Source: a virus
Taxonomy: Duplodnaviria > Caudoviricetes
Virus record (IMG/VR): IMGVR_UViG_3300034631_000008
Location: 1-53,010 of that record
Reading direction: 5' to 3' (one strand)
DNA: 53,010 nt
The position numbers and the translations under genes were made by a program. A model generated the notes under the pieces. The model had not been told where the DNA came from, made no database searches, and saw only the letters and a program-made list of their open reading frames with translations. Below, piece after piece: positions 1,467-49,771 of the stretch (position 1 is the stretch's first letter; each line of letters begins with the position of its first letter).

Positions 1467-1812
1467 ACGGCAAGAACGTGATGCGACGTGCCGCGTTGCA
1501 GGATGAGGTGGCGCCTATAAGAGGGAGCGGGTTATCCCCACTGTCCCCCGCCGGGGCGATTAACCGAACCTTAAAACAGTCTCGCGGCCGCTTTGGCGTT
1601 GCCGCGCAGTGCGGAATCGACCAAGCTGTCCTCTGGCCTCGATACGTCGGGACCAAAAGGGGCGGGCCGCCCTGCGGCAAACAGGAGCGGCCCGTATTGT
1701 CAACCACCTTGCGGGGGCCTTGTCGTGATCACGAGACCATATGTCGGTCATGACCCGACCATGTCAACTGATGTTGAAAGCCTCCGCTCCATTCGCCAAG
1801 GAGCGAGCAGAA

Positions 1813-2850
1813 ATGTCACAGGATGAACAGCCAAAGCGCGGGCTGACTAAGCGCATTCTCGACAAGGCCTCGGCGGCCGTCCGATTTGTGAAAGACGTCA
1901 CTTTCGACGCCCTCGCAAGTTTCACCAGCGACGGGAAGCAGATCGATTTCCCGATCGATTTTCAGACGGATACCGTCTGGGCAACCTACGAACAGATGGC
2001 AGCTCTGTTCGGAACGAAGTCCCCGGCGGTGATTAAGCACGTCCAGAACATCTACAGCGACGGCGAATTGGACCGATCGTCAACCGCTTCCAAAATGGAA
2101 GTGGTTCGCGATGAGGGCGGAAGAGCCGTCCGGCGCACCATCGATCATTTCAACTTAGACGTCATCCTCGCTGTCGGATACCGGGTGAACAGCCGGAAAG
2201 CGACCGAATTCAGAAAGTGGGCGACCAAGGTTCTGAAGGGCTACATCGAGAAGGGCTACGCCCTCAACGGCAAGCGTCTCGATAGCGATCCTGCTGCACT
2301 TCTGGCTCTTTCTCGTGAAGTCCGGGCCATCCGGACCTCGGAGAAGAACCTTTACACTCAGGTTAGAGAGACTTTCGCCGAGTGCTCGATCGATTATGAC
2401 AAGGACGACCCGACTGCGAGAACTTTCTTCGCAACGACGCAGGACGTTTTTCATTACGCTGCATCTGGTCAAACAGCAGCTGAGATTGTCCGATCCCGAG
2501 CCGATGCGTCCCGACCGAACATGGGGCTGACCGCGCTGGGTAATCAGAAGCCGCGAGCAGCTGATGTGACGGTCGCCAAGAACTATTGCTCGCCGACCGA
2601 GCTTCGAAAGATGGAGCTCATCGCTGAGGCATGGCTCCTGTATGCCGAAGGGATGGCGATGCAGAGTAAGCAGGTGTCCATGCAGCGCCTTCTCGATAAG
2701 CTTCGGGAGCTTGTCACTCAGTACGAATTCCCTGTTTTTCCTGGGTATCAGCAAGGAACGGTCCGGCGGGAAGCGGCAAATCTGCATGCCAGAAGACAGT
2801 TGGATCTCTTCCGACAGGGCCAGCGCCAGATTTCTGAGTCGGGCGCCTGA
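1813..2850 (+). CDS. rhuM: RhuM-family DNA-binding protein
   Basis: TVWATYEQMAALF, HVQNIYSDGEL, NLDVILAVGYRVNS, FRKWATKVL; AAGGAG RBS. Confidence 0.85.
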   Translation: MSQDEQPKRGLTKRILDKASAAVRFVKDVTFDALASFTSDGKQIDFPIDFQTDTVWATYEQMAALFGTKSPAVIKHVQNIYSDGELDRSSTASKMEVVRDEGGRAVRRTIDHFNLDVILAVGYRVNSRKATEFRKWATKVLKGYIEKGYALNGKRLDSDPAALLALSREVRAIRTSEKNLYTQVRETFAECSIDYDKDDPTARTFFATTQDVFHYAASGQTAAEIVRSRADASRPNMGLTALGNQKPRAADVTVAKNYCSPTELRKMELIAEAWLLYAEGMAMQSKQVSMQRLLDKLRELVTQYEFPVFPGYQQGTVRREAANLHARRQLDLFRQGQRQISESGA

Positions 2851-17300: not shown

Positions 17301-18005
17301 ATGGATGTGCCAATGCCCAAGCACTCAGGCTTCAAGGATCATTCGGGGCGCACCTTTGGCCGATGGACCGTGAAGTCCTACGCAGGCGTTCGGGGTGTGC
17401 ACCATTACTGGATGTGTTCGTGTGCGTGCGGGACAGAGAGACCGGTTAACGCCGGCAGTCTCAGCAAGGGCGTAAGCAAGTCCTGCGGCTGCTTGGCCAA
17501 GGAGCAGATATCGGAGCGACTCCTGACGGATCGAACAGGACAGCGCTTTGGCAGGCTGACGGTAGTATCCCGGACCTTAAACAGGGGCGGGCAGACCGTG
17601 TGGCTATGCTCTTGCGACTGTGGAAACACTGCCGAGGTTTCCGGCAGCGCCTTGCAGAGTGGGAATACACGCTCCTGCGGATGCCTCCGCAACGAGAGGA
17701 CCCGCCAGCGCCGGTCGACGCATCGACAGACAAAAACGCCGGAATGGAATTGCTGGTGCGCTATACGGAAGCGATGCCATAACGAGAATGATGCCGCTTA
17801 TGCCTACTACGGCGGGCGCGGCATCAAGGTCTGTGACCGGTGGCAAGAAAACTTTGCAGCCTTCTATGCCGACATGGGGCCGCGTCCTTCTCCTGACCAT
17901 TCCATCGACCGCATCGACAATGATGGCGACTACGAGCCCGGCAACTGTCGATGGGCGACGAAGAGCCAGCAGGCATTCAATCGCCGCGCCAAGGGCACCC
18001 GCTAG
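17301..18005 (+). CDS. Free-standing HNH homing endonuclease
   Basis: Two G.RFGR...W.C.C.CG...SCGC repeats; YGGRGI.VC.RW; SIDRIDNDGDYEPGNCRWAT. Confidence 0.9.
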   Translation: MDVPMPKHSGFKDHSGRTFGRWTVKSYAGVRGVHHYWMCSCACGTERPVNAGSLSKGVSKSCGCLAKEQISERLLTDRTGQRFGRLTVVSRTLNRGGQTVWLCSCDCGNTAEVSGSALQSGNTRSCGCLRNERTRQRRSTHRQTKTPEWNCWCAIRKRCHNENDAAYAYYGGRGIKVCDRWQENFAAFYADMGPRPSPDHSIDRIDNDGDYEPGNCRWATKSQQAFNRRAKGTR

Positions 18006-35326: not shown

Positions 35327-35934
35327 GCCGCAGTCCTTTCCTGCTGAGCGTCGTGGCAAAATTTCTTGAAGGCCGGAGTTCCGGATGCTGCGAACGCAAT
35401 GCCGACGGCCTCGGCCGCGTCGTGGTTCGGGACCGGGATTTTCAGCTGCGCGCACATGGCGACGGCGGCGCCCTTCCAGTCGGGCTTCTGGACGATCTTG
35501 CCGCGCTCCTTCACCGCGTTCATCGGCGGCTTGAAGCCCTTGCCGTAGAAGAGCGGGCGCCAGGAATTCACGGCGATGACGATGCGTGGAATGCCCTTGG
35601 CGCCGGCTGCGCAGGCGAGCGCGGAAACCATCTGGTTCGATGAGATCACCGCGTTGACGCCGGAGCCGCCCTCAACCTCTTGGGCCTCGCCCATGAAGGT
35701 CTGGACACGCTTTCCGCCCGGCTGTGCGCGGAGCGGCATTTCGATGGCGACGAAGTCCGGGCGCTGCTCTCGCATCATGACGAGGAGCTTGCGGTGGAGG
35801 TCGATCGCTTTCTCTTCGTAGCTCTCGCCAGTTGCGCGGATCAGCCCGGCCCGTATCGATGCGAGCGACCGCTGGGTGTCGTAGTAAGCAAAGCCAGTGC
35901 ACTGGGCGCCGTCGAGGCCGAGGATGATGGTCAT
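35323..35934 (-). CDS. RuvC-like Holliday junction resolvase
   Basis: ILGLD....TGFA, PDFVAIE, W-R, NHDAAEA. Confidence 0.8.
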   Translation of the reverse strand: MTIILGLDGAQCTGFAYYDTQRSLASIRAGLIRATGESYEEKAIDLHRKLLVMMREQRPDFVAIEMPLRAQPGGKRVQTFMGEAQEVEGGSGVNAVISSNQMVSALACAAGAKGIPRIVIAVNSWRPLFYGKGFKPPMNAVKERGKIVQKPDWKGAAVAMCAQLKIPVPNHDAAEAVGIAFAASGTPAFKKFCHDAQQERTAA

Positions 35935-37187
35935 GCTGCGCTTCCGAAGAGAGGACCGTGGTCAGGGTCGGTACCGGCTCGGCCAGCCTTGACGGCGGCA
36001 ATGGCGCGCTTGCGCTCCTCAGGCCCGGCGATTGCCATCTTCATGCGGCGCCGGATGTCCCCGGCATATTCCGCCTCGCGTTCGATCAGGATCGCGTCGA
36101 ATCCCTCGCGCCACGCAGCCTCAGCGGTCGTGCCGGTGCCTGCGAACGGGTCGAGGATCGTGCCGCCCTTCGGCGTGATCAGCCGGCAGAGGTATTGGAT
36201 GAGGTCGATCGGCTTGACTGTCGGGTGCTTGGACCCGATGCGGTCGTCAGCATCAGCCTTGGCCGCATAGAAGAACCGGGCTGCCGAGCCGCTGCCGCCG
36301 CCGTAACCGCCGCGTTCTGTCGCTACGAACTTGCCGCGCGCAACGCTATCGGCACCACTACAGCGAATGACCCCGCCGCTGTTGCCGTCGCTGTCTGGGA
36401 ATGCCGCCTCGACATCCTCGCTGCCGTCATGAAGGAGATTGGCCGGCCAGCGCCCATCGGGCGATCCGCCGCGCGGCCCCGGCTTCGCTGCGAAGTTCGT
36501 GCTGCCCGCGTCCTGGTACCTGCGCTCAGCGCTGGCCTCGCCTTCCCGATAGTGCGACCACAGCTTGCTGGCGCCTTCGCGCAGGCTTTCGTCGGTACCC
36601 ACGCGGCAGGCGTCGATGTTCACGGCGCCGGTTCCCCAGCGCAGGATGTTCGCGGTACCCGTCTCTTCGCTGAACGGCTTCTGGCCCATGTAGATCGGCT
36701 CGAGCGCCGGCTTGAGCGCTTGGCCGCCGTAGCGCTGGCCCTCGAACCCTTCCGCCTTGATGCGGGTCGCCTTTGGAAAGCCGCTGCCGAAGATCCAGCC
36801 GATCATCGGATGGGTAATGAAGCCGGCATCCTCGATCGCCACTGACATGCGGCCGAACCCGCGGGTGGACGCGAACGCGAGGATGTAGCCGCCGGGCTTG
36901 AGCACCCGCAGGACCGCCGCCCATGTCTCGACACGGAAGGCGACATCGCCACCGTCCCATGCCTTTCCCATGAAGCCTGCGGCGGAGCGCTTGTAGACGC
37001 CTGTGGGACCGTCCGCCTTCGTCGGCGTAGCGCCCTCCCCGCCGAACCGCTTGACGATGCTCGTCAGGTGGTAGGGCGGATCGCAGACGACGGAGTCCAC
37101 GCTGTTCTCAGGCATCGCCGCCAGCACGTTGAGGCAGTCGCCGACATGCAGCGTCACCCGTCCGTCGAGGAAGGCTTCCGCCGTCAT
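35931..37187 (-). CDS. N6A/N4C DNA methyltransferase (beta class), orphan
   Basis: DPPY before HPTVKP and DPFAGTGT. Confidence 0.93.
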   Translation of the reverse strand: MTAEAFLDGRVTLHVGDCLNVLAAMPENSVDSVVCDPPYHLTSIVKRFGGEGATPTKADGPTGVYKRSAAGFMGKAWDGGDVAFRVETWAAVLRVLKPGGYILAFASTRGFGRMSVAIEDAGFITHPMIGWIFGSGFPKATRIKAEGFEGQRYGGQALKPALEPIYMGQKPFSEETGTANILRWGTGAVNIDACRVGTDESLREGASKLWSHYREGEASAERRYQDAGSTNFAAKPGPRGGSPDGRWPANLLHDGSEDVEAAFPDSDGNSGGVIRCSGADSVARGKFVATERGGYGGGSGSAARFFYAAKADADDRIGSKHPTVKPIDLIQYLCRLITPKGGTILDPFAGTGTTAEAAWREGFDAILIEREAEYAGDIRRRMKMAIAGPEERKRAIAAVKAGRAGTDPDHGPLFGSAA

Positions 37188-38225: not shown

Positions 38226-38522
38226 TCAGATCCTTTCGCCAGGGCGTGGGGTTTCAGGGCGGTGCCAGGGGATTGAGCCGCCGACGGCATTCTCGGCCCG
38301 GGTGTCGATCAGCCGGGTCAGAACAGCGTCGAGGGATTCCGAGAGTGGGCGGAGAGGCCCAGCCGGAGCCGGGCCTTCCTCGACGAGCGTGCGCGGATTG
38401 CCGGGTGCAAAGGCACCCTCTCCCAAGCCCGGCGCGCATCCGTGCAATCTCGAAGGGCTCGTCGGCCTCCGCTTGGACGTCTCGGGAGAGGTGTTCGTAT
38501 TGGCTGGGCGGAGGGCGCTCAC
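38226..38522 (-). CDS. Hypothetical protein
   Basis: GTGA overlap, fills operon gap. Confidence 0.4.
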   Translation of the reverse strand: MSALRPANTNTSPETSKRRPTSPSRLHGCAPGLGEGAFAPGNPRTLVEEGPAPAGPLRPLSESLDAVLTRLIDTRAENAVGGSIPWHRPETPRPGERI

Positions 38523-39790
38523 AGCATCAGCGGCTGCACAGAGCCGTCCCTGAAAACGCTATCCATCGGGGTGTCGGCCTGCGGCTCGTCGCCGGTCCAA
38601 CCTTGCGGCCAGGTCTCCGCAGCGATCAGGGCCCGGATGCGGGCCGCTTCTTCTGCGTTGAGGATGTCGACGCCAGGACGACCGAGGCGCGCGGCTGCGT
38701 CGTTGCATTCGGCCTGAATGGCTTCGATGCGCTCAAGCGCCATCAGCCGGGCAGCGAATGTCAGTGGCCCCATCCGCTGCTTGTTCTTGCCGGTGGCGAC
38801 CGTCCGTACATCATCGAGCGACGGGCCGCCGTTGTGTCCGATGGTTGCGTCGGCAGTGACGGGATCAAAGCCTGTCTTCTTGATCCGGTGCCGGCTTTCC
38901 CGCAGCTCACGATAGATCGGCTTCAGACCGCGGAGCGGCGCTAGGTGAGCCCATGCGGGGGTGGCTAGGACGGTTTCTAGGGCGAGGTCTTTGGAGGCCA
39001 GCGGGCAGCCGATGCAGCCAGTGCGAGCCGCGATCTCTGCCGCCTCGTCACCGCCGTAGGCGTCGGCAATCGCAACGGTCGCCCAGCCGCCGTACTCCTT
39101 CATCGGCGCGTAGATGCGGAGCCAGTCCCACACGTTGCAGACCCGCCAGTGCAGGATCGGCGCCAACGTCGCGATCCGCCCGCGGATGCCCTTCGCCTGC
39201 GGCAGGACCTCCTGATACCAGCCCTGCCCGCACTCGGCGCCGTCCTTGCCGCAGGACATGGCGATGCGCTGGTCTCGCACGGCGCTCTCGCCCTGGCGGA
39301 CGCCGGTGATCATCAGGACCTTCCCGTCGATCTGTTCAAGCCGCTCGGCGATGGCCTGCGCCATCGGATCAACCTTGACCTGACGGGTGCACCAGCGGAG
39401 CGTATTGTTGTTCGGCGGCGGGACGCCCCGGCCAAGGATGTAGACCAGAAAGCGCTTATCCATCGGCGCGCGGACAACCTGGCACTCAATCCCGCGTGCG
39501 GCGAGCTGATCCATGATTGTGAAAGCGGACGCCTGAAGGGGCGGAAGCTCCTGTCGGGTGTCGGCATAGAAGACAGTCAGCGACTTCGGTGCCGCAATCC
39601 GCCCGACGTCGATCAGATGCACAATGAGGGTCAGCACGGCGGACGAGTCTTTGCCGCCCGACCATGCGATGCCCCAGTGGGGATGCTCCGGCCCGTAGGC
39701 CTGCAGCGATGCAACGGTCATTTCGACGGCGTCGTCGTAAACAAGGCGCTTCGATCCCTCGAACAGTGTCGGCTGGGCCGCAGCGCTCAT
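38519..39790 (-). CDS. PAPS reductase-family (DndC-like) protein
   Basis: SGGKDS PP-loop, RWCT..VK..P, GVR..ES..R, RTGCIGC. Confidence 0.9.
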   Translation of the reverse strand: MSAAAQPTLFEGSKRLVYDDAVEMTVASLQAYGPEHPHWGIAWSGGKDSSAVLTLIVHLIDVGRIAAPKSLTVFYADTRQELPPLQASAFTIMDQLAARGIECQVVRAPMDKRFLVYILGRGVPPPNNNTLRWCTRQVKVDPMAQAIAERLEQIDGKVLMITGVRQGESAVRDQRIAMSCGKDGAECGQGWYQEVLPQAKGIRGRIATLAPILHWRVCNVWDWLRIYAPMKEYGGWATVAIADAYGGDEAAEIAARTGCIGCPLASKDLALETVLATPAWAHLAPLRGLKPIYRELRESRHRIKKTGFDPVTADATIGHNGGPSLDDVRTVATGKNKQRMGPLTFAARLMALERIEAIQAECNDAAARLGRPGVDILNAEEAARIRALIAAETWPQGWTGDEPQADTPMDSVFRDGSVQPLML

Positions 39791-40278
39791 TCCGCAGCCG
39801 CCAGCTTGACGCCGGATGCGCCGAAGCACTTCCCGCGAGCCGCTTCCATGCCGCGCGTGATGTCCGCGACGGCTGAGCGGCCTTCCGCCTCGATGCAGGC
39901 CAGCTCCCGCCGGGTGATCACGTCGTCCGCATCGGCGGTGGTGACCGCGAAGACGAACTTGCCCGCATCGACCGCAGCCTGTCCCGCCAGCGAGCACAGC
40001 GGCATGTCGGCGTGCTGGATCTCGTCCCGGCGGATCAGGTAGCCGGCCATCGCTGCGATCGCCTCGAGCATGCACGGATAGCCCGCCGCCGCGTCGATCT
40101 TGCAGAACAGTTCAGCCGGGATCGCGTCGGGATGGTTGTCGCGCTTCCACCGGGTGATCGTCGGCTCGGACACCCCCAGCGCGGCCGCCATGCGAACGCC
40201 GCCGCCGGCCATCTTGCAGGCGCGGTCGAACGCGGCCTTCAACGCCAGAAGTTCGATGGAGAGAGGCTTGTCGCTCAT
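39787..40278 (-). CDS. Phage regulatory (CII-like) protein
   Basis: HTH (AAALGVS..TITRW), AD.VIT.RE. Confidence 0.7.
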   Translation of the reverse strand: MSDKPLSIELLALKAAFDRACKMAGGGVRMAAALGVSEPTITRWKRDNHPDAIPAELFCKIDAAAGYPCMLEAIAAMAGYLIRRDEIQHADMPLCSLAGQAAVDAGKFVFAVTTADADDVITRRELACIEAEGRSAVADITRGMEAARGKCFGASGVKLAAAE

Positions 40279-41574: not shown

Positions 41575-42267
41575 TCAAATCCTTGTGGCGATGATGTCGT
41601 GGATGCTGTCGATCGACGCGATGTTGGCGCGGACCTTCGCCGTCTGCTTTTCGTCGAGGTTCGGGAGGATCGCTTCGAGATCGGCTTTGCCGAGTTCCGC
41701 CGCGTATTCGCTGACGAGCGCCACGAAGTGCATGGCCTTGTTGAAGGCTTCCGGATCGCGGCCCTTGAGCCACGTCTGAGGATCGGGCGCCGGGCGGGCC
41801 TTCCGGCCTTGATCAGCCAGCGTGGTCAGCGTCGGCGGCGTCGGGCTCTCGACCTGCTCGGTGAATTCCGGCTCGGGCAGGCTGGCAATGCGAACAGCCT
41901 GCTTCGTCTGATGCGGCGACATGCCGGCTTGTTCGGCCACCTCGCGCTGTGTCGGCGCGGGAGCAGAAGGGCGGGCGCCCTCCTTTTTGGTCGTGTCGCC
42001 GCCGCGACCATCGAATTGCTGAAGGAGTTCTCCGGCGCGGCGCATCGCGCGGGCCCTGATGCGCGCCGCCATCCGCTCGAGCTCGAGATCTTCAGCCTGC
42101 TTGGCGTAGGATGCGAGAGCGGCGGCCTTGTCTGCCCAGTCCTTGCACTCGTCGACGGAGGCGCAGTTGGTCAGCGCCGTCTTGGCGTTCTCGTAAGAGA
42201 CCGGAAGGCGAGCATTCGAGACATTCGCCGGGAGTTTGGTGGGAGTAGCGGGCGCGATTTCGATCAT
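41575..42267 (-). CDS. Hypothetical phage protein with HTH-like segment
   Basis: DECKDWADKA.ALASYAKQA...RA.RR.GELL; directly after cro. Confidence 0.78.
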   Translation of the reverse strand: MIEIAPATPTKLPANVSNARLPVSYENAKTALTNCASVDECKDWADKAAALASYAKQAEDLELERMAARIRARAMRRAGELLQQFDGRGGDTTKKEGARPSAPAPTQREVAEQAGMSPHQTKQAVRIASLPEPEFTEQVESPTPPTLTTLADQGRKARPAPDPQTWLKGRDPEAFNKAMHFVALVSEYAAELGKADLEAILPNLDEKQTAKVRANIASIDSIHDIIATRI

Positions 42268-42467
42268 GCGGCCACTCCCTCAGCGTTCGGGGTCGGACGT
42301 TGTGCGACCGCCTCAAGAAGCTTCTGCGCGGAGCCGCGAGGGCGGGTGATGCCTTTCTCCCATCTGGAGACATTCGATCGGTCGACGCCGATCTCTGCTG
42401 CCAGCTCTTCTTGGGAGAGGTTCAGGCGCTTGCGGAGCGCCGCGATATCGATTGGTTTCTGATCCAT
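42264..42467 (-). CDS. cro: Cro-like Xre HTH regulator
   Basis: LSQEELA..IGV.RS.VSRWE.G; divergent from repressor. Confidence 0.9.
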   Translation of the reverse strand: MDQKPIDIAALRKRLNLSQEELAAEIGVDRSNVSRWEKGITRPRGSAQKLLEAVAQRPTPNAEGVAA

Positions 42468-42480
42468 GACGATCGCATAT

Positions 42481-42541
42481 GTGCATAACGCACTTATCCT
42501 CGTCAAGTCGAAACGCACATTCGATCCGGTGCAATTTGCAC
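42481..42541. promoter_or_regulatory. OR operators and divergent pR/pRM promoters
   Basis: GTGCATAACGCAC (42481-93), AGTCGAAACGCAC (42506-18), GTGCAATTTGCAC (42529-41); CTTGAC -35 on minus at 42502-07. Confidence 0.8.
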
Positions 42542-42543
42542 GG

Positions 42544-43158
42544 ATGGATTTTGACGACCGCCCAGAGCCCGCGAGAAGGCTGGAAGAAGCGAGGCTGGCA
42601 CGAGGCTTTAAGAGCGCCCGAGCCGCCGCCGACTACTTCGGGTGGAAGTACGACAGCTATGCTCAGCACGAGAGCGGCCTTCGCGGCCTTTCCAGATCGG
42701 CAAAGCGATATGCGAATGCCTACGGTGTGTCCGAAGGCTGGCTGCTGACCGGCGAGGGAAACGACGAGATCACCAACGTGCCTCACGTCTCTTGGGTGAG
42801 CGCAGGCCAACTGAAGAAGTCAGAGGGTGTGACCTCAGCCGAAATCGAACGGTATGTGCCGGTAGCCAATCTGCCTCGGGGCGACTGGATGGCTTTGACC
42901 GTCCGCGGTGACTCGATGGATCGGATTGCGCCCGAGGGTTCGATTATCGTCCTCAACCACGCCGACGACACGCTGCTCAACGATCGCTTCTACGTCTTCT
43001 CGCTGGAAGGCGGAGAAGCGACATTCAAGCGCTACCGCAGCTCTCCCCGCCCCATGCTGCAGCCGTTCTCGACGAACCTCGACCACATGTCGATTCCCGC
43101 CAATGAAGGCGAGTTCTATGTCGTCGGCCGCGTTCGCCGGGTCATCACCGATGTCTGA
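42544..43158 (+). CDS. cI: CI-like repressor (HTH + S24 autopeptidase)
   Basis: N-terminal HTH, SAG cleavage site, GDSM Ser, TFKR Lys; no RBS, likely leaderless. Confidence 0.92.
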   Translation: MDFDDRPEPARRLEEARLARGFKSARAAADYFGWKYDSYAQHESGLRGLSRSAKRYANAYGVSEGWLLTGEGNDEITNVPHVSWVSAGQLKKSEGVTSAEIERYVPVANLPRGDWMALTVRGDSMDRIAPEGSIIVLNHADDTLLNDRFYVFSLEGGEATFKRYRSSPRPMLQPFSTNLDHMSIPANEGEFYVVGRVRRVITDV

Positions 43159-43522
43159 GAACCCGCCTATCCTCTACGCCCGCCTTCCGGATGCAGCATC
43201 AAGTGCCGGATACGTCGTCCGCGGGCACACGATGGGGGCAATCCGGGACGGATGGATCGTGTTCATCGAGAACAAGCAGAGGCCTCCTGGCGACCATCTC
43301 CTGAACGAGTTGTGCGTGGTCGAGACGAAGGCCGGCGAAAACCTCATCCGCTACGTGCGGAAAGGACGGCGGCCCGGCACGTGGGATCTGGTTACGGTCA
43401 CGGGGCCCGACATGCGAGACGTCCCCGTCGTGTGGGCTGAGCTCGTGATCCTGATCCAGCCGCACAGCCTCTCGGGACCGGAGATTGAGGTTCTCAATCA
43501 GATGGATGGGGTGCTGGGGTGA
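43151..43522 (+). CDS. Stand-alone degenerate S24-like domain
   Basis: VRGHTM..IRDGWIVF, CVV..K.GE.LIR..R.G; overlaps cI stop. Confidence 0.7.
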   Translation: MSENPPILYARLPDAASSAGYVVRGHTMGAIRDGWIVFIENKQRPPGDHLLNELCVVETKAGENLIRYVRKGRRPGTWDLVTVTGPDMRDVPVVWAELVILIQPHSLSGPEIEVLNQMDGVLG

Positions 43523-43561
43523 TCGACGCAGCTGCGCTTGCCTTGAGCGGAGGGTGATGCC

Positions 43562-44470
43562 GTGAGTCATGTCTTCGGCGGCGAACACACTGAACGGAAG
43601 CTTGACGTCGTCGAAGACTACCTGAAGCGCTACACCAGTGCGTTGAGCACGAAGCCATTCACGCTTTGGTACATCGATGCTTTCGCCGGCACAGGATCGC
43701 GAGATGTCGAGCGAGATGTCGGATTATTTGACGAGACCGACGATCCAACGGTTCGGCAAACATTGGACGGCTCGGCGCGTCGCGCCCTAAAGATAGACCC
43801 TCCGTTTCAACATTTCGTTTTCGTAGAAGAGGACGCCGAGCGCGTCGCCACTTTGGAGAACATCCGCAGCGAGTTTCCTGATCGCGATGTGACGATCAAG
43901 TGCGGAGAAGCCAATGAGGCTCTCGCAGACTTCGATTTCTTGAAGACGTGGTCAAGAGTTAACCCGCTCAATCGAGGCGTCGTATTCCTAGACCCATACG
44001 CGCTGCAAGTCGACTGGGCGACGTTGGTCAGCTTGGCTCAGACGAGGAAGATAGACGTCTGGTATCTCTTCCCCATTCGTGATGTCACCCGGCAGCTGGC
44101 GCACGACATTGATGGCGTCGGTCCGAAATCCGGAAGGCTTGATCGCGTCCTCGGGCACGCGTGGCGGGAGTTGTATGCGCCCCCGCCAGCGAACCAATCA
44201 AGCTTATTCGACGCCCCTGTGATCCCTTCTCACAAACGGATAGCGACGAAAGCAGAGATAGAGGATTGGTTTAGGCGAAGGTTGGAAAGCGAGTTCAGCT
44301 TCGTCGCCGATCCGGTTCCGATCGGCGGTCGCGACGATAGCCCGATATTCTCGCTCTTCCTGGCGATCGGCAACAAGAGCGAGAGAGCGAAGCGGCTGGC
44401 AGGTCAATTTGCCAAAGATGTCAGGCGCCGGCATGAGCAGCGGGCATCTCGTCGTATGTCCGGCCGTTGA
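43562..44470 (+). CDS. tcmP: Three-Cys-motif partner protein (MTase-like)
   Basis: HT..KL..V..YL..Y, YIDAFAGTG, GSA..AL, FLDPY. Confidence 0.9.
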   Translation: MSHVFGGEHTERKLDVVEDYLKRYTSALSTKPFTLWYIDAFAGTGSRDVERDVGLFDETDDPTVRQTLDGSARRALKIDPPFQHFVFVEEDAERVATLENIRSEFPDRDVTIKCGEANEALADFDFLKTWSRVNPLNRGVVFLDPYALQVDWATLVSLAQTRKIDVWYLFPIRDVTRQLAHDIDGVGPKSGRLDRVLGHAWRELYAPPPANQSSLFDAPVIPSHKRIATKAEIEDWFRRRLESEFSFVADPVPIGGRDDSPIFSLFLAIGNKSERAKRLAGQFAKDVRRRHEQRASRRMSGR

Positions 44471-45179
44471 GCATCCGACCGGACGCCTTCTTGTTCCGTC
44501 CGCCCCACTGCTTGAAGAAGAACGCTGTGCGCGCTCCACGACACATGCGCTCAATCTCGTCGACCCATGCAGGATCCATGTGACGCGACTTCGGACCTGA
44601 TTCCCCGCCGACGATCGCCCAATGAATATCTGAAAGGTTCGCCCCTGCGACAGAACCGATGAGCGGCTCGAAAGAGATGAACCGGACCGCTGCCGGCACA
44701 CGGCGCAGATCGTCGATGCGATTGATCACCCGGCCATCCTCGACGCTCGTCCCCAGCCAGACATTTGGCAACACAGCGAGTCCGCTGTTTTGCAGCACGT
44801 CGGCCATCCGATCAGGTCGCTTCGTCAGGATCTGGTAGGTGTGGTGCGGCGTGTTCCGCATGACCGTCCAGACCTCGCCGATGAACTCGACAGGCACGCC
44901 GTCATGGAACAGATCCGACATCGAGTTGACGAAGACCCGGCGCGGCGATCGCCACTTGGCGGGTGCCGCCAGCGCGCCATGATCCAGCGTGATTTTCCCG
45001 GTCCAGACCTTCCGCCCGCCGCTGGTCCGAGTGAGGCCGCGGTACTTCTCCTGCCCCATGGCCTCGAGCCGCGCGGCCATTCGCATCGCGTAGCAGTTCG
45101 TGCATCCGGCTGTCAGCACGGTGCATCCCGCCACCGGATTCCAGGTGGCATCCGTCCATTCAATCGAGGTCTCGGCCAT
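44421..45179 (-). CDS. DUF5131 (phage Gp37/Gp68, radical-SAM-like three-Cys) protein
   Basis: IEWTD.TWNP..GC-x6-C-x2-CYA, FVNSMSDLFH, LTKRP, GGESG, FFFKQWGG. Confidence 0.93.
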   Translation of the reverse strand: MAETSIEWTDATWNPVAGCTVLTAGCTNCYAMRMAARLEAMGQEKYRGLTRTSGGRKVWTGKITLDHGALAAPAKWRSPRRVFVNSMSDLFHDGVPVEFIGEVWTVMRNTPHHTYQILTKRPDRMADVLQNSGLAVLPNVWLGTSVEDGRVINRIDDLRRVPAAVRFISFEPLIGSVAGANLSDIHWAIVGGESGPKSRHMDPAWVDEIERMCRGARTAFFFKQWGGRNKKASGRMLNGRTYDEMPAAHAGA

Positions 45180-45255
45180 GGGATGATTCTCCTATGTTCA
45201 TGGCTTAATCTTTTGTAGACCAATTCGGGCTTTCGCGTGCCTGTCGCGTACTATT

Positions 45256-45640
45256 CAACCTTCAGGAGTCTTGGCGTTCTTGGTCCCTGAAGGTTGCGAG
45301 AGGAGGGTTCCGGAGCCAAAGACCCCCCTACCCCCACAGGCCGAAGCCAGCGAAGGTAGGGAGGCCATGGCTGGTCCTGAAGGCCGGAGCCGGATGGGAC
45401 ACTACGCCAGGACGCCTCTCGGCAATCCGTCCTCAGTTTCCGGTCGCACCGTAGGATGATCTAACCCCCGCGCGTGGCGGCTGTACCGGCAGACCCGTTG
45501 CAGAGCCCGTCGCCGCCTTCACCCTTCGAGGTCGCGCATAGACTTGCCTTGCGAGGCAAGATCATTTAACCGAAATCCTGTTCACAGACTTCAGCATGCG
45601 AGACGCGAAGGCCCCGGTTCACCGCCGGGGCTTTTCGCGT
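45256..45640 (-). ncRNA. Candidate structured RNA or long leader upstream of DUF5131
   Basis: Many helices favouring minus strand (G-U pairs), cUUCGg and GAGA tetraloops, upstream promoter. Confidence 0.6.
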
Positions 45641-45642
45641 TC
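45603..45642 (+). terminator. Long hairpin, likely terminator insulating pL
   Basis: ACGCGAAGGCCCCGG-N7-CCGGGGCTTTTCGCGT. Confidence 0.6.
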
Positions 45643-45718
45643 TAGGCCGTGCTCCTGTTCGCCGTCAACAAAAATGTGCGTAACGCACTTGACGTGATGT
45701 GCGTAACGCACGCATATT
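45640..45718. promoter_or_regulatory. OL operators with pL and a divergent promoter
   Basis: GTGCGTAACGCAC at 45676-88 and 45699-711 flanking TTGACG (45689-94) with GCATAT at N17; minus TTGACG (45663-68)-N17-CTAGAA. Confidence 0.8.
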
Positions 45719-45757
45719 AGGCCCATCGAAACGCCACCGCCCCGATGGAGCCCCGAC

Positions 45758-46003
45758 ATGCTGGACACGCCCGAAGCAGCAATCAGCAGACGCGGTTTTC
45801 TTGGCGGCATCGCAGCCACCGTCACCGCAGCCTTCATCCCGGTCATGTCCGGCAAGGCCGACGCCGCTGAGGTGAGTGAGCCGAAGCACCGGAAGCTTCC
45901 CGATGGCTGGGAACATGTCGGCTCGGGCCGCTACCGCTTCACCGCATTCACGTCGACCGAGACCGTGGTGTGGGCAGAAACGCCCGCAATCGCCGCCGCC
46001 TGA
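45758..46003 (+). CDS. Small protein with twin-arginine signal
   Basis: SRRGFL, hydrophobic core, ADA site; GGAG RBS. Confidence 0.7.
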   Translation: MLDTPEAAISRRGFLGGIAATVTAAFIPVMSGKADAAEVSEPKHRKLPDGWEHVGSGRYRFTAFTSTETVVWAETPAIAAA

Positions 46004-46030
46004 CCACCCACCCCCTCTGGAGCCGCCCCG

Positions 46031-46378
46031 ATGAAGCACCCTTTCCGCCCTGACGAAGCGCCTTGGTACATCAACCGCAGCCCGATCGAGGTTGAGACGA
46101 CTGCCGACCTGATCATCTGCGGCGCGCTCATTGCCGAGCCCACGGTCACTCTGACCATCGCGGACGTCCGGACCAACCCGATCGTCGTGAACTACGAGTT
46201 CGAGGACCACGCCGGGACCGTCGTCGAGGTCGATGCCCAGAAGTGGCACGTCACCCACAAGTCCGAGCAGGCGGCATGGCCGGAGATCGCGGTCTTCGTC
46301 AGCGCCTGCGACTGCGCCTTTACCGATGCCGTCCGCGCTGAGGCTGCCGAGCAGCTGCAGACGGCGATGGCGGCCTGA
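46031..46378 (+). CDS. Hypothetical protein
   Basis: GGAG RBS, early operon. Confidence 0.7.
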   Translation: MKHPFRPDEAPWYINRSPIEVETTADLIICGALIAEPTVTLTIADVRTNPIVVNYEFEDHAGTVVEVDAQKWHVTHKSEQAAWPEIAVFVSACDCAFTDAVRAEAAEQLQTAMAA

Positions 46379-46440
46379 GCGGCCGCCCGAATTTCCCCAC
46401 CCCAACCACACACCCCGCCCCGGCGGAATGGGAGCCAGAG

Positions 46441-46680
46441 ATGACGAGCACCAGCAACTATGTCGGCGGCGATGTCAGCGCGCCCGCGAAGTATGAACTC
46501 CGCATCAACGGCACGGTCACCGAGACCAGCAGCAATGTCGTTGACCTTTACTGGAAAGCGCGTTGGGCGGTCTGCGGGAAGCCCGAAGCTCGCGCAGAAG
46601 TCGAAGCTGTCTCTGGCTTCTACGTCAACGCCTTCTTCTCGGATGACACCCTCCTTGAGTGGGAACGCGCCGCCGTCTGA
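46441..46680 (+). CDS. Hypothetical protein
   Basis: GGGAG RBS. Confidence 0.65.
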   Translation: MTSTSNYVGGDVSAPAKYELRINGTVTETSSNVVDLYWKARWAVCGKPEARAEVEAVSGFYVNAFFSDDTLLEWERAAV

Positions 46681-46732
46681 GCCCCCACCGAGGGGCATCG
46701 GCCCCTCATCCCCAACACCGGAGATTGAGACA

Positions 46733-47140
46733 ATGACGAAGGCGAAATCCGCGAAAGCCCGCAAGCAGCATCACGAAGCATCGAAGCCGGAAGAGGCCCC
46801 GATAGTCGCGCTCAAGGTGGGCGACTGGCAGTTCCCCGCCTTTGACGGGCTGTCCGCAGCCTTCGGCGCAGATGGCCGTGACTACCCGCCGATGGATCGC
46901 ATCCCCGACGAGTTCATGCGCGGTCACACGCCCTTCAACAAGGTCGTCTCCACGCTGTTCTTCAAGGGCGGCTCGCTTGCTGATTTCAGTCTGCAGTTCA
47001 AGCCGGACATCGACCGCCGGTCAGCGATGACTGCGATCCGCGCCCTCCTCTGTTCCTTCGCCCCGAAGCACGAAGTCAAGGAAGCCACCGTCGCTTGGTG
47101 CCTCTCCGAATGGACCGTGCCGACCGACCTCCCCGCCTGA
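46733..47140 (+). CDS. Hypothetical phage protein
   Basis: GGAG RBS; LFFKGG, SFAPKHE.K. Confidence 0.7.
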   Translation: MTKAKSAKARKQHHEASKPEEAPIVALKVGDWQFPAFDGLSAAFGADGRDYPPMDRIPDEFMRGHTPFNKVVSTLFFKGGSLADFSLQFKPDIDRRSAMTAIRALLCSFAPKHEVKEATVAWCLSEWTVPTDLPA

Positions 47141-47175
47141 TCCCATCCCCAACGACGAAGCGCAAAGAGGCAGAG

Positions 47176-47559
47176 ATGACCAACCGACTCTCCGACGCCA
47201 CGCTGTACGCCCTAGCCGATCCTGTTGAAGTCGAAGGCTACGACGCCCCGCTTCAGCCGTTCACTGCGGCTCGTGCCCGACTGGACGATTTCGACGTGAT
47301 CCGCGAGACGGCCCGCGCCCTCAAGCTGCCGCCGCTCAATGCCCACCAGGAAGACGCGATCATCGAAGCTGTCGGGCCTGCCGATGGCGTTGACGATGAT
47401 GTCCGGCGCGTTCGGATCGTTCGCGAAACCCTCGCCGAGTTCGGCGTCGATACCGACCGCTGCACCGCCGTCTATTCCAAGGTCTACGGCCGGTGCAAGC
47501 GCATCGCGATGGACGTGGACCGGGCGCACCGGGGCGCGTTCTCGGAGGCGAGGGTATGA
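47176..47559 (+). CDS. Hypothetical protein
   Basis: GAGG RBS; ATGA overlap with next gene. Confidence 0.7.
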   Translation: MTNRLSDATLYALADPVEVEGYDAPLQPFTAARARLDDFDVIRETARALKLPPLNAHQEDAIIEAVGPADGVDDDVRRVRIVRETLAEFGVDTDRCTAVYSKVYGRCKRIAMDVDRAHRGAFSEARV

Positions 47560-48506
47560 CGGCGGAACAGGTCTGGACCGGCAAGCCAATCAGCAAGCCC
47601 GGCATCTATCGGGGCATCGGATTGTCCGAATACCACGAGAAGGCGGACCTGTTCGACGGCCCGTCGATCTCCAAGAGCTCGCTGAAGCACCTTCTGCCGT
47701 CGCATGGCGGCAGCCCGAAAGCCTTCTGGGGCCGGTGGCGGCACAACCCCGAGCACATCGCACAGAAGTCGACCGATGCGCTGAATTTCGGCAAGGCGGC
47801 GCACTGCCTGCTGCTCGGCGACGAGGTCTTCGACGACAGCTTCGTCATCCGCCCGGACGAGTATCCGGACGCGAAGACGGGCGAGATGAAGCCGTGGAAC
47901 GGCAACGCCGGTTGGTGCAAGGGCTGGCTCGCAGATCATGCGGGTAAGACGATCGTCACCGCCGACCAGATGACCATGATCCGCAAGATGCGGGACGACG
48001 CCGCGCGCTATCCGCTGGTGCAACAAGGCCTGCTCAATGGCGCCGTCGAGCGCACGATGGCCTGCAAGGATTCTGAGACCGGCATCTGGCTGAAGGTCCG
48101 GCCCGACGTCATCCCGGCGGCCGACGGTGTCTATGCGGACCTCAAGACCACGGCCGACCTGAGCGAGGACTTCCTCGAGCGCCAGGCTTTCGACGCCTGC
48201 TACTACCTGCAGGGCGCGATGATCCGCATGGTGTGCCGAGAGCTCAAGCTGCCGTTCACGACCTTCGCCCTGCTCTACGTCCTGAAGGACGAGATCCCCG
48301 ATACCGCGCACGTTGAACTGTCGGAGCACGAGCTCGACCGCGGCGAGCGGGAAATCCGCTGGGCTCTGACCACGATCCGCAAGTGCCTCGACGCTGGCGA
48401 ATGGCCCGGCGCGCGGCCGTTCAAGGGCGGCGAGCAACACCTGCAGCTCAAAAATTGGCACAAGACCAAGATCGACGACTTCCTCGAAATGGAGCAGGCA
48501 GCATGA
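47556..48506 (+). CDS. recE: RecE-like exonuclease VIII (PD-(D/E)XK)
   Basis: YH.....ISKS.LK, FG.A.H..LL, K.RPD, DLKT, Y.LQ. Confidence 0.88.
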   Translation: MTAEQVWTGKPISKPGIYRGIGLSEYHEKADLFDGPSISKSSLKHLLPSHGGSPKAFWGRWRHNPEHIAQKSTDALNFGKAAHCLLLGDEVFDDSFVIRPDEYPDAKTGEMKPWNGNAGWCKGWLADHAGKTIVTADQMTMIRKMRDDAARYPLVQQGLLNGAVERTMACKDSETGIWLKVRPDVIPAADGVYADLKTTADLSEDFLERQAFDACYYLQGAMIRMVCRELKLPFTTFALLYVLKDEIPDTAHVELSEHELDRGEREIRWALTTIRKCLDAGEWPGARPFKGGEQHLQLKNWHKTKIDDFLEMEQAA

Positions 48507-49771
48507 ACCAGATCGCCCCCATTGATCGCCTGCCGCAGGCCTTCCGTGACGACGTGCACGCGATGGAGCCGCAGTTCGTCGCCGCGCTCCCGCCTCAGAT
48601 CCCCGTCGAGCGCTTCATGCGCGTCGTGATGACCGCGGTGAACAGCGACCCGGACCTTCTCCGCGCCGACAAGCACAGCTTGTTCGAAGCCGCCGTCAAG
48701 GCAGCGCAGGACGGCCTCCTGCCCGACAAGCGAGACGGCGCCTTCGTCATCTTCTCCGGCAAGGTCCAGTGGATGCCCATGGTTGGCGGCATCCTGAAGA
48801 AGGTGCGCAACTCCGGCGAGTTGAAGAGCATCGCCGCGCACGTCGTCTACTCCGGCGACCAGTTCACCTACGAGCTCGGCGACGAGGAGCGGATCGAGCA
48901 TCGCCCCAACCTTTTCGGCGATCGCGGCGAGCCCATCGCCGTCTATGCCGTGGCGCACACCAAGGACGGCGGCATCTATCGCGAGATCATGTCGACGAAG
49001 GATGTCGAAAAGGTTCGGTCGGTCTCGAAAGCGAGGAACGGCGGGCCTTGGAAGGAGTGGTGGGACGAGATGGCCCGGAAGACGGTCATCCGCCGGCTCG
49101 CCAAGCGGCTTCCGATGTCCAGCGACCTCGACGACATCATCCGCCGCGACGACGAGATGTACGACCTGAACCGCCGGGAAGCCGACGTCGAGCGGCTACC
49201 GTTGTCGGCGCGCCTCGCCGCATCGGCGCAGCACAGCATCACGGATGCGACGGAGGGCTTCAGGCACTCGGTCATCGACGGAGAGCTTCGCGGCGCTACT
49301 GAGGCTCCTGCGGGCGAGAATGGCGCGGATGAAGGCGAACAGCCGGGCCAGCAGGAGGATGTGAGCGAGGTTGAAGTCGCGCAGACGAGCCGAGAGAGCG
49401 AGACTCCCGTCGCGCCGCCGGCTGACGAGAGCGAGACCGGCGACGTTGACCCCGCCGACGAGCGCGAGGAGCCGACCGTCTCGGAAGCCGACCGCAAAAC
49501 TCTGGCACGGTACGCGCAGGACATGTTTGGCAAGGCGATCGGGGAAGGCATCCCAGAGAAGCGCGAGGCCGACATCCTGAAGGGATCGAAGGTCTGGGCC
49601 GCAGACATCGGTAAGATGTCCGACGAGGCGAAGGAGATGGCCCGCGCGATCATGCGGTCAGCGAAGGCCGTGAACTCGGGTGACACGAGCGTCGAGAGTG
49701 CGGCCGATTATTTCGCGGGCGTTCTCGACGTGCCGATGGAGTCGATCATGCCGGCGCGGGATGTCGCGTGA
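48503..49771 (+). CDS. recT: RecT recombinase with long C-terminal extension
   Basis: LP..I..ERF.R, AA..GL.PD, PW..W.DEMA.KTV.RRL.K.LP.S. Confidence 0.9.
   Translation: MNQIAPIDRLPQAFRDDVHAMEPQFVAALPPQIPVERFMRVVMTAVNSDPDLLRADKHSLFEAAVKAAQDGLLPDKRDGAFVIFSGKVQWMPMVGGILKKVRNSGELKSIAAHVVYSGDQFTYELGDEERIEHRPNLFGDRGEPIAVYAVAHTKDGGIYREIMSTKDVEKVRSVSKARNGGPWKEWWDEMARKTVIRRLAKRLPMSSDLDDIIRRDDEMYDLNRREADVERLPLSARLAASAQHSITDATEGFRHSVIDGELRGATEAPAGENGADEGEQPGQQEDVSEVEVAQTSRESETPVAPPADESETGDVDPADEREEPTVSEADRKTLARYAQDMFGKAIGEGIPEKREADILKGSKVWAADIGKMSDEAKEMARAIMRSAKAVNSGDTSVESAADYFAGVLDVPMESIMPARDVA

Follow-up and report, generated by a model that had tools for sequence, protein, structure and literature searches.

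A tail-to-tail TcmP and DUF5131 gene pair in the immunity region of a temperate phage, with a putative role in SAM-dependent DNA modification

Neighbouring genes for a TcmP protein (NCBIfam) and a DUF5131 protein (Pfam) form a pair of a known, catalogued kind, listed by PADLOC as PDC-M41, while a longer TcmP paralogue together with DUF5131 is listed as PDC-M30; a PDC label stands for a candidate only. DUF5131 is a very large family without known chemistry (37,357 clusters at 50% identity have a match at E <= 0.001), and its pairing with TcmP is a listed defence candidate. According to PMC9477430, RadicalSAM.org places DUF5131 in radical S-adenosylmethionine (SAM) subgroup Megacluster-5-2, beside spore photoproduct lyase (SPL) in 5-3. 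In two papers on Sinorhizobium, TcmP appears in tables only: it is tabled among prophage open reading frames (ORFs; PMC12429752), and the TcmP protein SMa2243 is tabled beside the Hna defence gene (PMC12445080); the pair goes unnamed in the main text of a PADLOC-related preprint (10.1101/2024.01.29.577857). The pair described here lies in the IMG/VR virus record IMGVR_UViG_3300034631_000008, a whole virus of 53,010 bp with a completeness estimate of 99% (the window, meaning the whole stretch of DNA analysed). At a probability of about one half, the preferred reading is that it is a self-contained, mobile TcmP+DUF5131 cassette in the slot after the immunity repressor, carrying out SAM-dependent modification or processing of DNA to the benefit of the lysogen.

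What is added here to the catalogued pair are the predicted folds, a rule of tail-to-tail arrangement, the polarity of the pair relative to the repressor, a comparison of the cargo slot between relatives, and a separate structured element. The two genes and their overlap are as follows.

43562..44470, + strand: tcmP, 302 amino acids (aa); GTG start with GGAGGG 7 nt upstream; TIGR04474, PDC-M41A; predicted RlmJ-like fold.
44421..45179, - strand: DUF5131 gene, 252 aa; PF07505, PDC-M41B; predicted radical-SAM-type enzyme with a Cx6Cx2C motif.
44421..44470, no strand: overlap of the 3' ends of tcmP and the DUF5131 gene, 50 bp including the stop codons.

The DUF5131 protein matches Pfam PF07505 (phage Gp37/Gp68) over the whole profile, 1-243 of 243 (E 6.9e-95, 317.6 bits against a gathering score of 28.9), and TcmP matches NCBIfam TIGR04474 (E 1.5e-48, 166 bits, cut-off 53), with no match to a Pfam family. 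An initial annotation made from the sequence had described a methyltransferase-like TcmP with DAFAGTG and DPY motifs, an opposite-strand DUF5131 gene with Cx6Cx2C and a 50-bp overlap of their 3' ends, all of which are present, and had proposed a PADLOC check, in which the adjacent genes match both models of the candidate system (PDC-M41A at 2.5e-71 and PDC-M41B at 2.9e-106). The closest relatives of TcmP are about 50-54% identical to it, the named ones being mostly from Rhizobiales, and the closest named relative of the DUF5131 protein is 89% identical (Aurantimonas coralicida).

An alignment of 30 relatives shows no variation at the three cysteines of the DUF5131 cluster motif (C19, C26 and C29) or at G191-G192-E193, which resembles the SAM-binding GGE motif; K120, E171 and K223 are also conserved in that alignment. 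The spacing Cx6Cx2C is a variant, and differs from the canonical radical SAM motif CX3CX2C, which is also the cluster motif of SPL. A structure model of the protein (predicted local distance difference test score, pLDDT, 93.7; predicted template modelling score, pTM, 0.91) forms a partial TIM barrel of the radical SAM type, and in a structure comparison with VIA its first match is SPL (4fhc_A; Z 13.5, root mean square deviation (rmsd) 2.9, 196 residues aligned), followed by viperin, SuiB and lysine 2,3-aminomutase at Z 10.1-10.8. Radical SAM enzymes account for 22 of the top 24 matches, and Foldseek is concordant on the likeness to SPL. When the protein was searched against PDB chains at E <= 10, as a single sequence and as a profile, no match was found, SPL included.

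TcmP carries the motifs D39-A-F-A-G-T-G45 and L143-D-P-Y146, and an alignment of 38 relatives shows D39, A40, A42, G43, F142, L143, D144 and P145 to be invariant, with N118 also among the conserved residues; the invariant D144-P145 is followed by Y or F, one proline fewer than in D-P-P-Y. Its model (pLDDT 87, pTM 0.85) has a class I methyltransferase fold. The VIA comparison gives Z 17.3 to 2oo3, of the RlmJ/DUF519 family (rmsd 3.6, 209 aligned), Z 16.3-16.6 to the best Escherichia coli RlmJ entries, Z 15.9 to Trm1 and about 13.5-14 to generic methyltransferases. The match to RlmJ/DUF519 is near full length (model residues 1-4 to 299 are aligned), and Foldseek again agrees on an RlmJ-type fold.

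The pairing itself was followed in a viral set of 23 contigs with a TcmP relative and in a genome set made up of the best 80 of 581 genome loci. That the two families are regular partners, as the initial annotation had it, was borne out: a DUF5131 gene adjoins tcmP in 23/23 viral loci and in 79/80 genome loci, and the lone exception has almost no flank. The two genes are convergent in 22 of the 23 viral loci and co-directional in one (L022); among the 80 genome loci 54 are convergent, DUF5131 lies downstream and co-directional in 9 and upstream and co-directional in 13, three are divergent and one has no partner. In the convergent relatives, going by tblastn match ends, the two genes overlap by up to about 46 bp or lie up to 133 bp apart. 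Convergence tracks the lineage of the DUF5131 gene, in that the convergent copies, two excepted, reach 60% identity or more to that of the window, while the non-convergent layouts, largely from Chloroflexota, Planctomycetota and sphingomonads, have DUF5131 copies 38-53% identical to it, with one at 61%. By these comparisons the window copy is of the convergent, 3'-overlapping form that appears typical of the mostly alphaproteobacterial relatives with the most similar DUF5131.

In the 23 viral loci, identity to the window copies is 52-81% for DUF5131 and 34-44% for TcmP, and the content of guanine plus cytosine (GC) is 57.0% in tcmP compared with 64.9% in the window; the lower GC content was counted for a foreign origin. 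TcmP would be the fast-evolving, lower-GC, variable partner of the two.

Where the pair sits is best seen from the features of the surrounding immunity region.

42264..42518, - strand: Cro-like helix-turn-helix (HTH) gene (longest ORF; likely start ATG at 42464); HTH_3 5.1e-13, PHROG transcriptional regulators.
42466..43158 (alternative start 42544), + strand: CI-type immunity repressor, HTH plus S24 autopeptidase; Peptidase_S24 1e-11, phrog_4 repressor 1.3e-30.
42481..42541, no strand: predicted right operator region, with GTGC-N5-GCAC at 42481-42493 and 42529-42541, between cro and cI.
43151..43522, + strand: orf123, its ATG overlapping the cI stop codon.
43638..43650, no strand: fifth GTGC-N5-GCAC palindrome, 76 nt inside tcmP.
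45676..45718, + strand: predicted left operators, two perfect 13-mers (45676, 45699) overlapping a promoter-like TTGACG-18-CATATT.
45758..49771, + strand: start of the leftward early operon, with a small ORF with a twin-arginine (TAT)-type signal first, on to ExoVIII-like and RecT genes.

The Cro-like gene is divergent from, and faces, the S24 repressor gene. The window has five copies of the palindrome GTGC-N5-GCAC, where 1.7 would be expected, and two of them, perfect 13-mers, flank the -35 of the promoter-like site at 45689-45718 (+ strand). The copy at 43638-43650 may be a chance match, or a repressor site limiting read-through from cI. The stretch from one operator region to the other contains cI, orf123 and tcmP, all on the + strand, the DUF5131 gene on the - strand, and some 580 bp in which no convincing ORF was seen. 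The placing of the pair between cI and the left operator in the initial annotation is therefore upheld, since an S24 repressor stands on one side and predicted operators with a promoter-like site before the ExoVIII/RecT operon on the other. Orf123 has no family match in Pfam, NCBIfam, PADLOC or PHROG, and is probably translated together with the repressor because its ATG overlaps the cI stop codon. Because cI and orf123 overlap, only 39 nt separate orf123 from tcmP, and a consensus scan found no terminator-like site on the + strand, it is plausible that tcmP rides on the repressor transcript. A look for RNA runs that contain this DNA listed none.

The same position recurs in relatives. An upstream survey covered 73 crude ORFs from 19 IMG/VR loci plus that of Synechococcus phage Yong-M2-251, with four near-duplicate loci left out, and found an S24 repressor upstream of, and co-oriented with, tcmP in 11 of the 19 distinct IMG/VR loci, with one further locus showing an HTH domain only. 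On the DUF5131 side (52 ORFs from 21 loci, that of Yong-M2-251 included) a repressor, S24 and co-oriented with DUF5131, was found in one of 20 IMG/VR loci (L014), and + strand recombination genes (RecT, ERF, PDDEXK, Gp157) recur downstream of DUF5131, as they do in the window. The Gordonia phages Bosnia, Angelique, ThankyouJordi and Easley all show the order repressor, TcmP-like gene and convergent DUF5131 (4/4 examined): a Cro-like gene, an immunity repressor and a TcmP-like 'methyltransferase' are followed by DUF5131 on the other strand. In these phages the TcmP-like gene abuts the repressor gene, either overlapping it by 4 bp or starting 3 bp after it, and overlaps DUF5131 by 4 bp at the 3' ends; gp45 of Bosnia matches TIGR04474 at 6.2e-36 and is of the PDC-M30A type. 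The polarity of repressor, TcmP and opposing DUF5131 has become fixed in alphaproteobacterial phages and, separately, in actinobacterial ones, and this comparative rule indicates which half of the pair should be on in the lysogen.

A separate observation concerns Synechococcus phage Yong-M2-251 (2082-3981 of its locus). Recorded on a cyanobacterial host, it has in common with the window phage, which is alphaproteobacterial-looking and of 65% GC, a DUF5131 protein of 72% identity, the structured element described below, and the same layout from the repressor side to the RecT side.

The content of the slot varies. Between the repressor and the conserved element, relatives carry DarT plus Macro, HEPN plus a C5 methylase, DUF3800, an Arc-like gene, YcxB or the DUF5131 pair, and a SocA/Panacea gene is found between repressor and tcmP; the rexAB-equivalent slot of the initial annotation is supported in so far as the site behaves as a cargo slot. 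Two such stretches can be given by position.

L041 5155-6928 and L040 3322-5068: cargo of relatives, DarT with a Macro-domain gene, or HEPN with a C5 cytosine methylase.

From cargo such as DarT/Macro or HEPN/C5 methylase, the slot appears to collect genes of the conflict type.

Put together, these data suggest a SAM-dependent module that acts on nucleic acid, probably DNA, and is tied to lysogeny or DNA damage. The DUF5131 protein would bind a [4Fe-4S] cluster through Cx6Cx2C, cleave SAM to the 5'-deoxyadenosyl radical and act on a flipped-out DNA nucleotide, as its nearest structural relative, SPL, does. TcmP, with its RlmJ-like fold, would bind SAM and flip the base, serving target recognition, methylation or both. 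In the lysogen tcmP would be made with the repressor, and DUF5131 would be transcribed separately from the opposite strand, its promoter lying either in the 108 bp that separate the gene from the conserved element or farther upstream. The module might then modify or process DNA for the lysogen's benefit, by excluding other phages or by marking self. The two-component nucleic-acid modification or anti-phage system of the initial annotation stands to this extent, that the predicted folds fit a SAM-dependent pair working on nucleic acid and that PADLOC lists PDC-M41 as a candidate.

A second kind of control is suggested by the sequences before the two genes in relatives. The direct repeat GTTC-N7-GTTC, the alphaproteobacterial LexA box, was sought in exact form in the 250 nt ahead of each gene in 77 convergent loci, and stands before tcmP in 10 of them and before DUF5131 in 12, counts that near-duplicate loci inflate; in 200 shuffles the mean was 0.56 (tcmP) and 0.48 (DUF5131), and the highest count 3 and 2. 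Both genes are preceded by the repeat in three loci. These boxes point to DNA damage as a condition bearing on the pair, and stand-alone chromosomal copies might be switched on by DNA damage through LexA. One possibility, judged rather unlikely, is that in the quiet lysogen the partner with the methyltransferase fold is produced along with the repressor while DUF5131 is held back, with full activity when CI or LexA falls; the restraint on DUF5131 may come from convergent transcription or from a damage-sensitive repressor. If true, the pair would be a switch for DNA modification or self-marking coupled to induction or DNA damage.

The boxes can also be read as a sign of repair, with an SPL-type DUF5131 lyase reversing a lesion or crosslink and TcmP finding or flipping the damaged base, so that the two guard phage or host DNA around induction. 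In favour are SPL as the nearest fold (Z 13.5) and the excess of LexA-type boxes ahead of the two genes in relatives; also, the cassette adjoins RecA-sensitive S24 repressors, and DUF5131 stands alone among the early or replication genes of many phages. This role is nonetheless judged rather unlikely: the boxes are found in only 10 and 12 of the 77 loci and not in the window, there is no match to SPL at the level of sequence, and a fast-evolving, lower-GC partner and the PADLOC candidate listing fit conflict systems better.

Several results weigh against the preferred reading of a self-contained cassette that acts on DNA for the lysogen. The loci compared are partly related by descent, and the same element was at times taken from two collections (e.g. 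L009/L085 and L011/L094); the counts given here overstate independence. An S24 repressor stands upstream in only 4 of the 54 convergent genome loci, of which many adjoin housekeeping genes. Because few genome loci have such a repressor, the repressor slot would be one home among many, and elsewhere tcmP would have to have a promoter of its own; the cassette accordingly reads as autonomous and mobile, with the repressor slot as one favoured home among others. In the window neither tcmP nor DUF5131 is preceded by a LexA-type box, even with one mismatch, or by a CI operator, of which the search found none within about 500 bp of where DUF5131 starts. In four related prophage contigs tcmP is frameshifted and DUF5131 intact, as follows.

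About 3843-4762 in L023, L024 and L026, and 1940-2859 in L025: split tcmP, as ORFs of 76 aa and 229 aa.

The DUF5131 enzyme does not need TcmP in general, because 174 of 50,697 isolated phage records hold DUF5131 and about 10 hold a TcmP-type partner (of the window type in 2, of the Bosnia type in 8). It is unlikely, because it is so common without TcmP, that DUF5131 is a toxin needing an antidote. The catalysis of TcmP is uncertain, because D-P-Y stands in place of D-P-P-Y; PF04378 (RlmJ) was matched at E <= 1 by 0/38 TcmP relatives, which gave only scattered, chance-level Pfam hits, and single-sequence and profile searches of TcmP against PDB chains gave no match. Finally, a search of the literature on DUF5131, TcmP, PDC-M41/PDC-M30 and Gp37Gp68 found no functional study of the pair.

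Apart from the phage loci, the convergent pair was seen directly after lepA in three different alphaproteobacterial genomes (L065, L068 and L104), which suggests a recurrent chromosomal insertion site.

Phages also modify DNA on their own behalf, Mom and phage methylases protecting phage DNA from restriction in this way, and the pair could likewise hypermodify the phage DNA in lytic growth and so defeat host restriction or other defences. A Mom-family gene adjoins the pair in L015, a C5 methylase lies near the lone DUF5131 gene of RcapNL, and the window phage has a PAPS-reductase-like gene and a DNA methyltransferase. Such a function is improbable here, as tcmP is coupled to the lysogenic repressor and not to early or late lytic genes, and most of the genome copies lie outside prophages. 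The fold matches raise the question of an RNA substrate, since RlmJ and Trm1 are RNA methyltransferases, RlmN, Cfr and MiaB being radical SAM enzymes of RNA: the pair might modify rRNA or tRNA and thereby alter translation in lysogens or infected cells. The best fold matches of TcmP are indeed RNA methyltransferases (RlmJ at Z 16.3-16.6, Trm1 at 15.9), and RlmN, MiaB and Cfr are among the weaker matches of DUF5131, but the DNA enzyme SPL outscores all the radical SAM enzymes that act on RNA by 2.7 Z units and likeness in fold leaves the substrate unfixed, so that an RNA target is quite doubtful. That the cassette is decaying or neutral cargo in a permissive slot, with no role for this phage, would agree with the frameshifted tcmP of L023-L026 and with the lack of any recognised regulatory site for DUF5131 in the window, and is very improbable given that both ORFs are intact with all family-invariant residues kept and that layout and polarity are kept across distant phages.

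Beyond the start of the DUF5131 gene lies a second conserved feature, followed by a hairpin.

45288..45516, probably + strand: conserved structured element, probably RNA, found with nhmmer and showing covariation; no Rfam family.
45609..45642, + strand: terminator-like GC-rich hairpin and U-run after the element; fold -31.5 kcal/mol, z -4.2.

Conservation between the stretch 45288-45516 and the Synechococcus phage record is about 72%, and a 19-base word of it is present in 30 viral contigs of IMG/VR (L028-L057). An alignment of 29 copies gives a structure of 41 pairs in which 96.9% of cells are paired, against 51-60% with slid partners; changes on both sides occur at 12 pairs, against 2-6 when slid, and the covariation score was reached by 0/500 shuffles. 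Rfam, searched on 43000-46500 at E <= 1, returned only sR40 and COG2908 RNA, both weak, unrelated and far below the gathering scores. Either strand gives a fold with covariation and contains G-U pairs; the + strand is the likelier, because of the terminators and of the co-directional neighbours on the right. The hairpin at 45609..45642 was not listed by the consensus terminator scan.

The initial annotation had taken this element as a structured leader controlling DUF5131, and had the two halves of the pair regulated separately, one from the repressor promoter and one through the leader. The first half of that proposal remains plausible for tcmP from the gene spacing; the leader was rejected, as DUF5131 occurs in the fetched stretch of only 5 of the 30 contigs, a + strand terminator follows the element, and its left neighbour is co-directional with it in about half of the loci. 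Nor was a hairpin over the DUF5131 ribosome-binding site significant (z -1.7). In 11 of the 25 loci examinable the element is preceded by an S24 repressor on the same strand. Because nhmmer finds the element in 5/23 viral and 3/80 genome TcmP loci, it would be a feature of one prophage lineage, marking the far end of the cargo slot, rather than a DUF5131 leader; at about 230 nt it is a candidate new phage RNA.

The phage is temperate and has a tail of the myovirus type. Of the two ends of the record, one has a tRNA-Ser gene and the other an integrase; by PHROG scan the - strand carries the terminase, portal, major head, sheath, baseplate and tape-measure genes, and the rightward early operon holds a DnaB-like helicase, the DNA methyltransferase and the PAPS-reductase-like gene. 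The host is probably an alphaproteobacterium, because the phage's closest protein relatives are from Rhizobiales. The DNA methyltransferase and the large PAPS-reductase-like protein (phrog_12882, 1.9e-218), at 35931-37187 and 38519-40075 (- strand), indicate that the phage has DNA-modification genes besides the TcmP/DUF5131 pair. The first ORF past the left promoter, 45758-46003 (+ strand), has a TAT signal (TIGR01409, 4.9e-05), which is unusual at the head of an early recombination operon. An HNH endonuclease gene at 17301-18005 (+ strand; phrog_374, 5.4e-84) lies on the opposite strand within the tail block, flanked by the genes for sheath and chaperone; it has a lower GC content (60%) and looks like a homing-type insertion. 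Near the tRNA-Ser end, a 369-aa ORF at 1741-2850 (+ strand) has the lowest GC content of the record (56%) and no PHROG match, and may be further cargo.

In comparison with known systems, the DUF5131 protein is like SPL in fold (Z 13.5) and, by PMC9477430, in its RadicalSAM.org megacluster; it differs in being about 90 residues shorter, in the Cx6Cx2C motif and in having no match at sequence level. TcmP is alike in fold, near full length, to RlmJ/DUF519, the methyltransferase for m6A2030 of 23S rRNA, and to Trm1, and shares with amino-methyltransferases the order of motifs, an AxAGxG-type motif I and then D-P-aromatic. It differs from RlmJ in having D-P-Y/F and not D-P-P-Y, and in being always paired with a radical SAM gene, as RlmJ is not.

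With lambda rexAB and other repressor-side defence genes of lysogens, tcmP agrees in position and polarity, in that it follows the repressor on the same strand and precedes the leftward operon, and, as in a rexAB-like slot, the content varies between relatives. No Rex family was found for the slot genes in the Pfam, NCBIfam, PADLOC and PHROG scans, and, differently from rexAB, only tcmP is co-oriented with the repressor, DUF5131 being on the other strand. Convergent type II restriction-modification systems resemble the pair in having a gene with a methyltransferase fold and a second enzyme gene tail to tail, presumably under separate promoters, with the methyltransferase-like gene as the half that would be expressed with the resident regulator; here the second gene encodes a radical SAM enzyme and not a nuclease. 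Within the TcmP+DUF5131 cassette family itself, the window copy is no different in kind and sits in a prophage immunity region, and the window thereby offers a well-defined natural setting for the pair, which is intact, in a complete temperate phage and next to a mapped, if predicted, system of repressor and operators.

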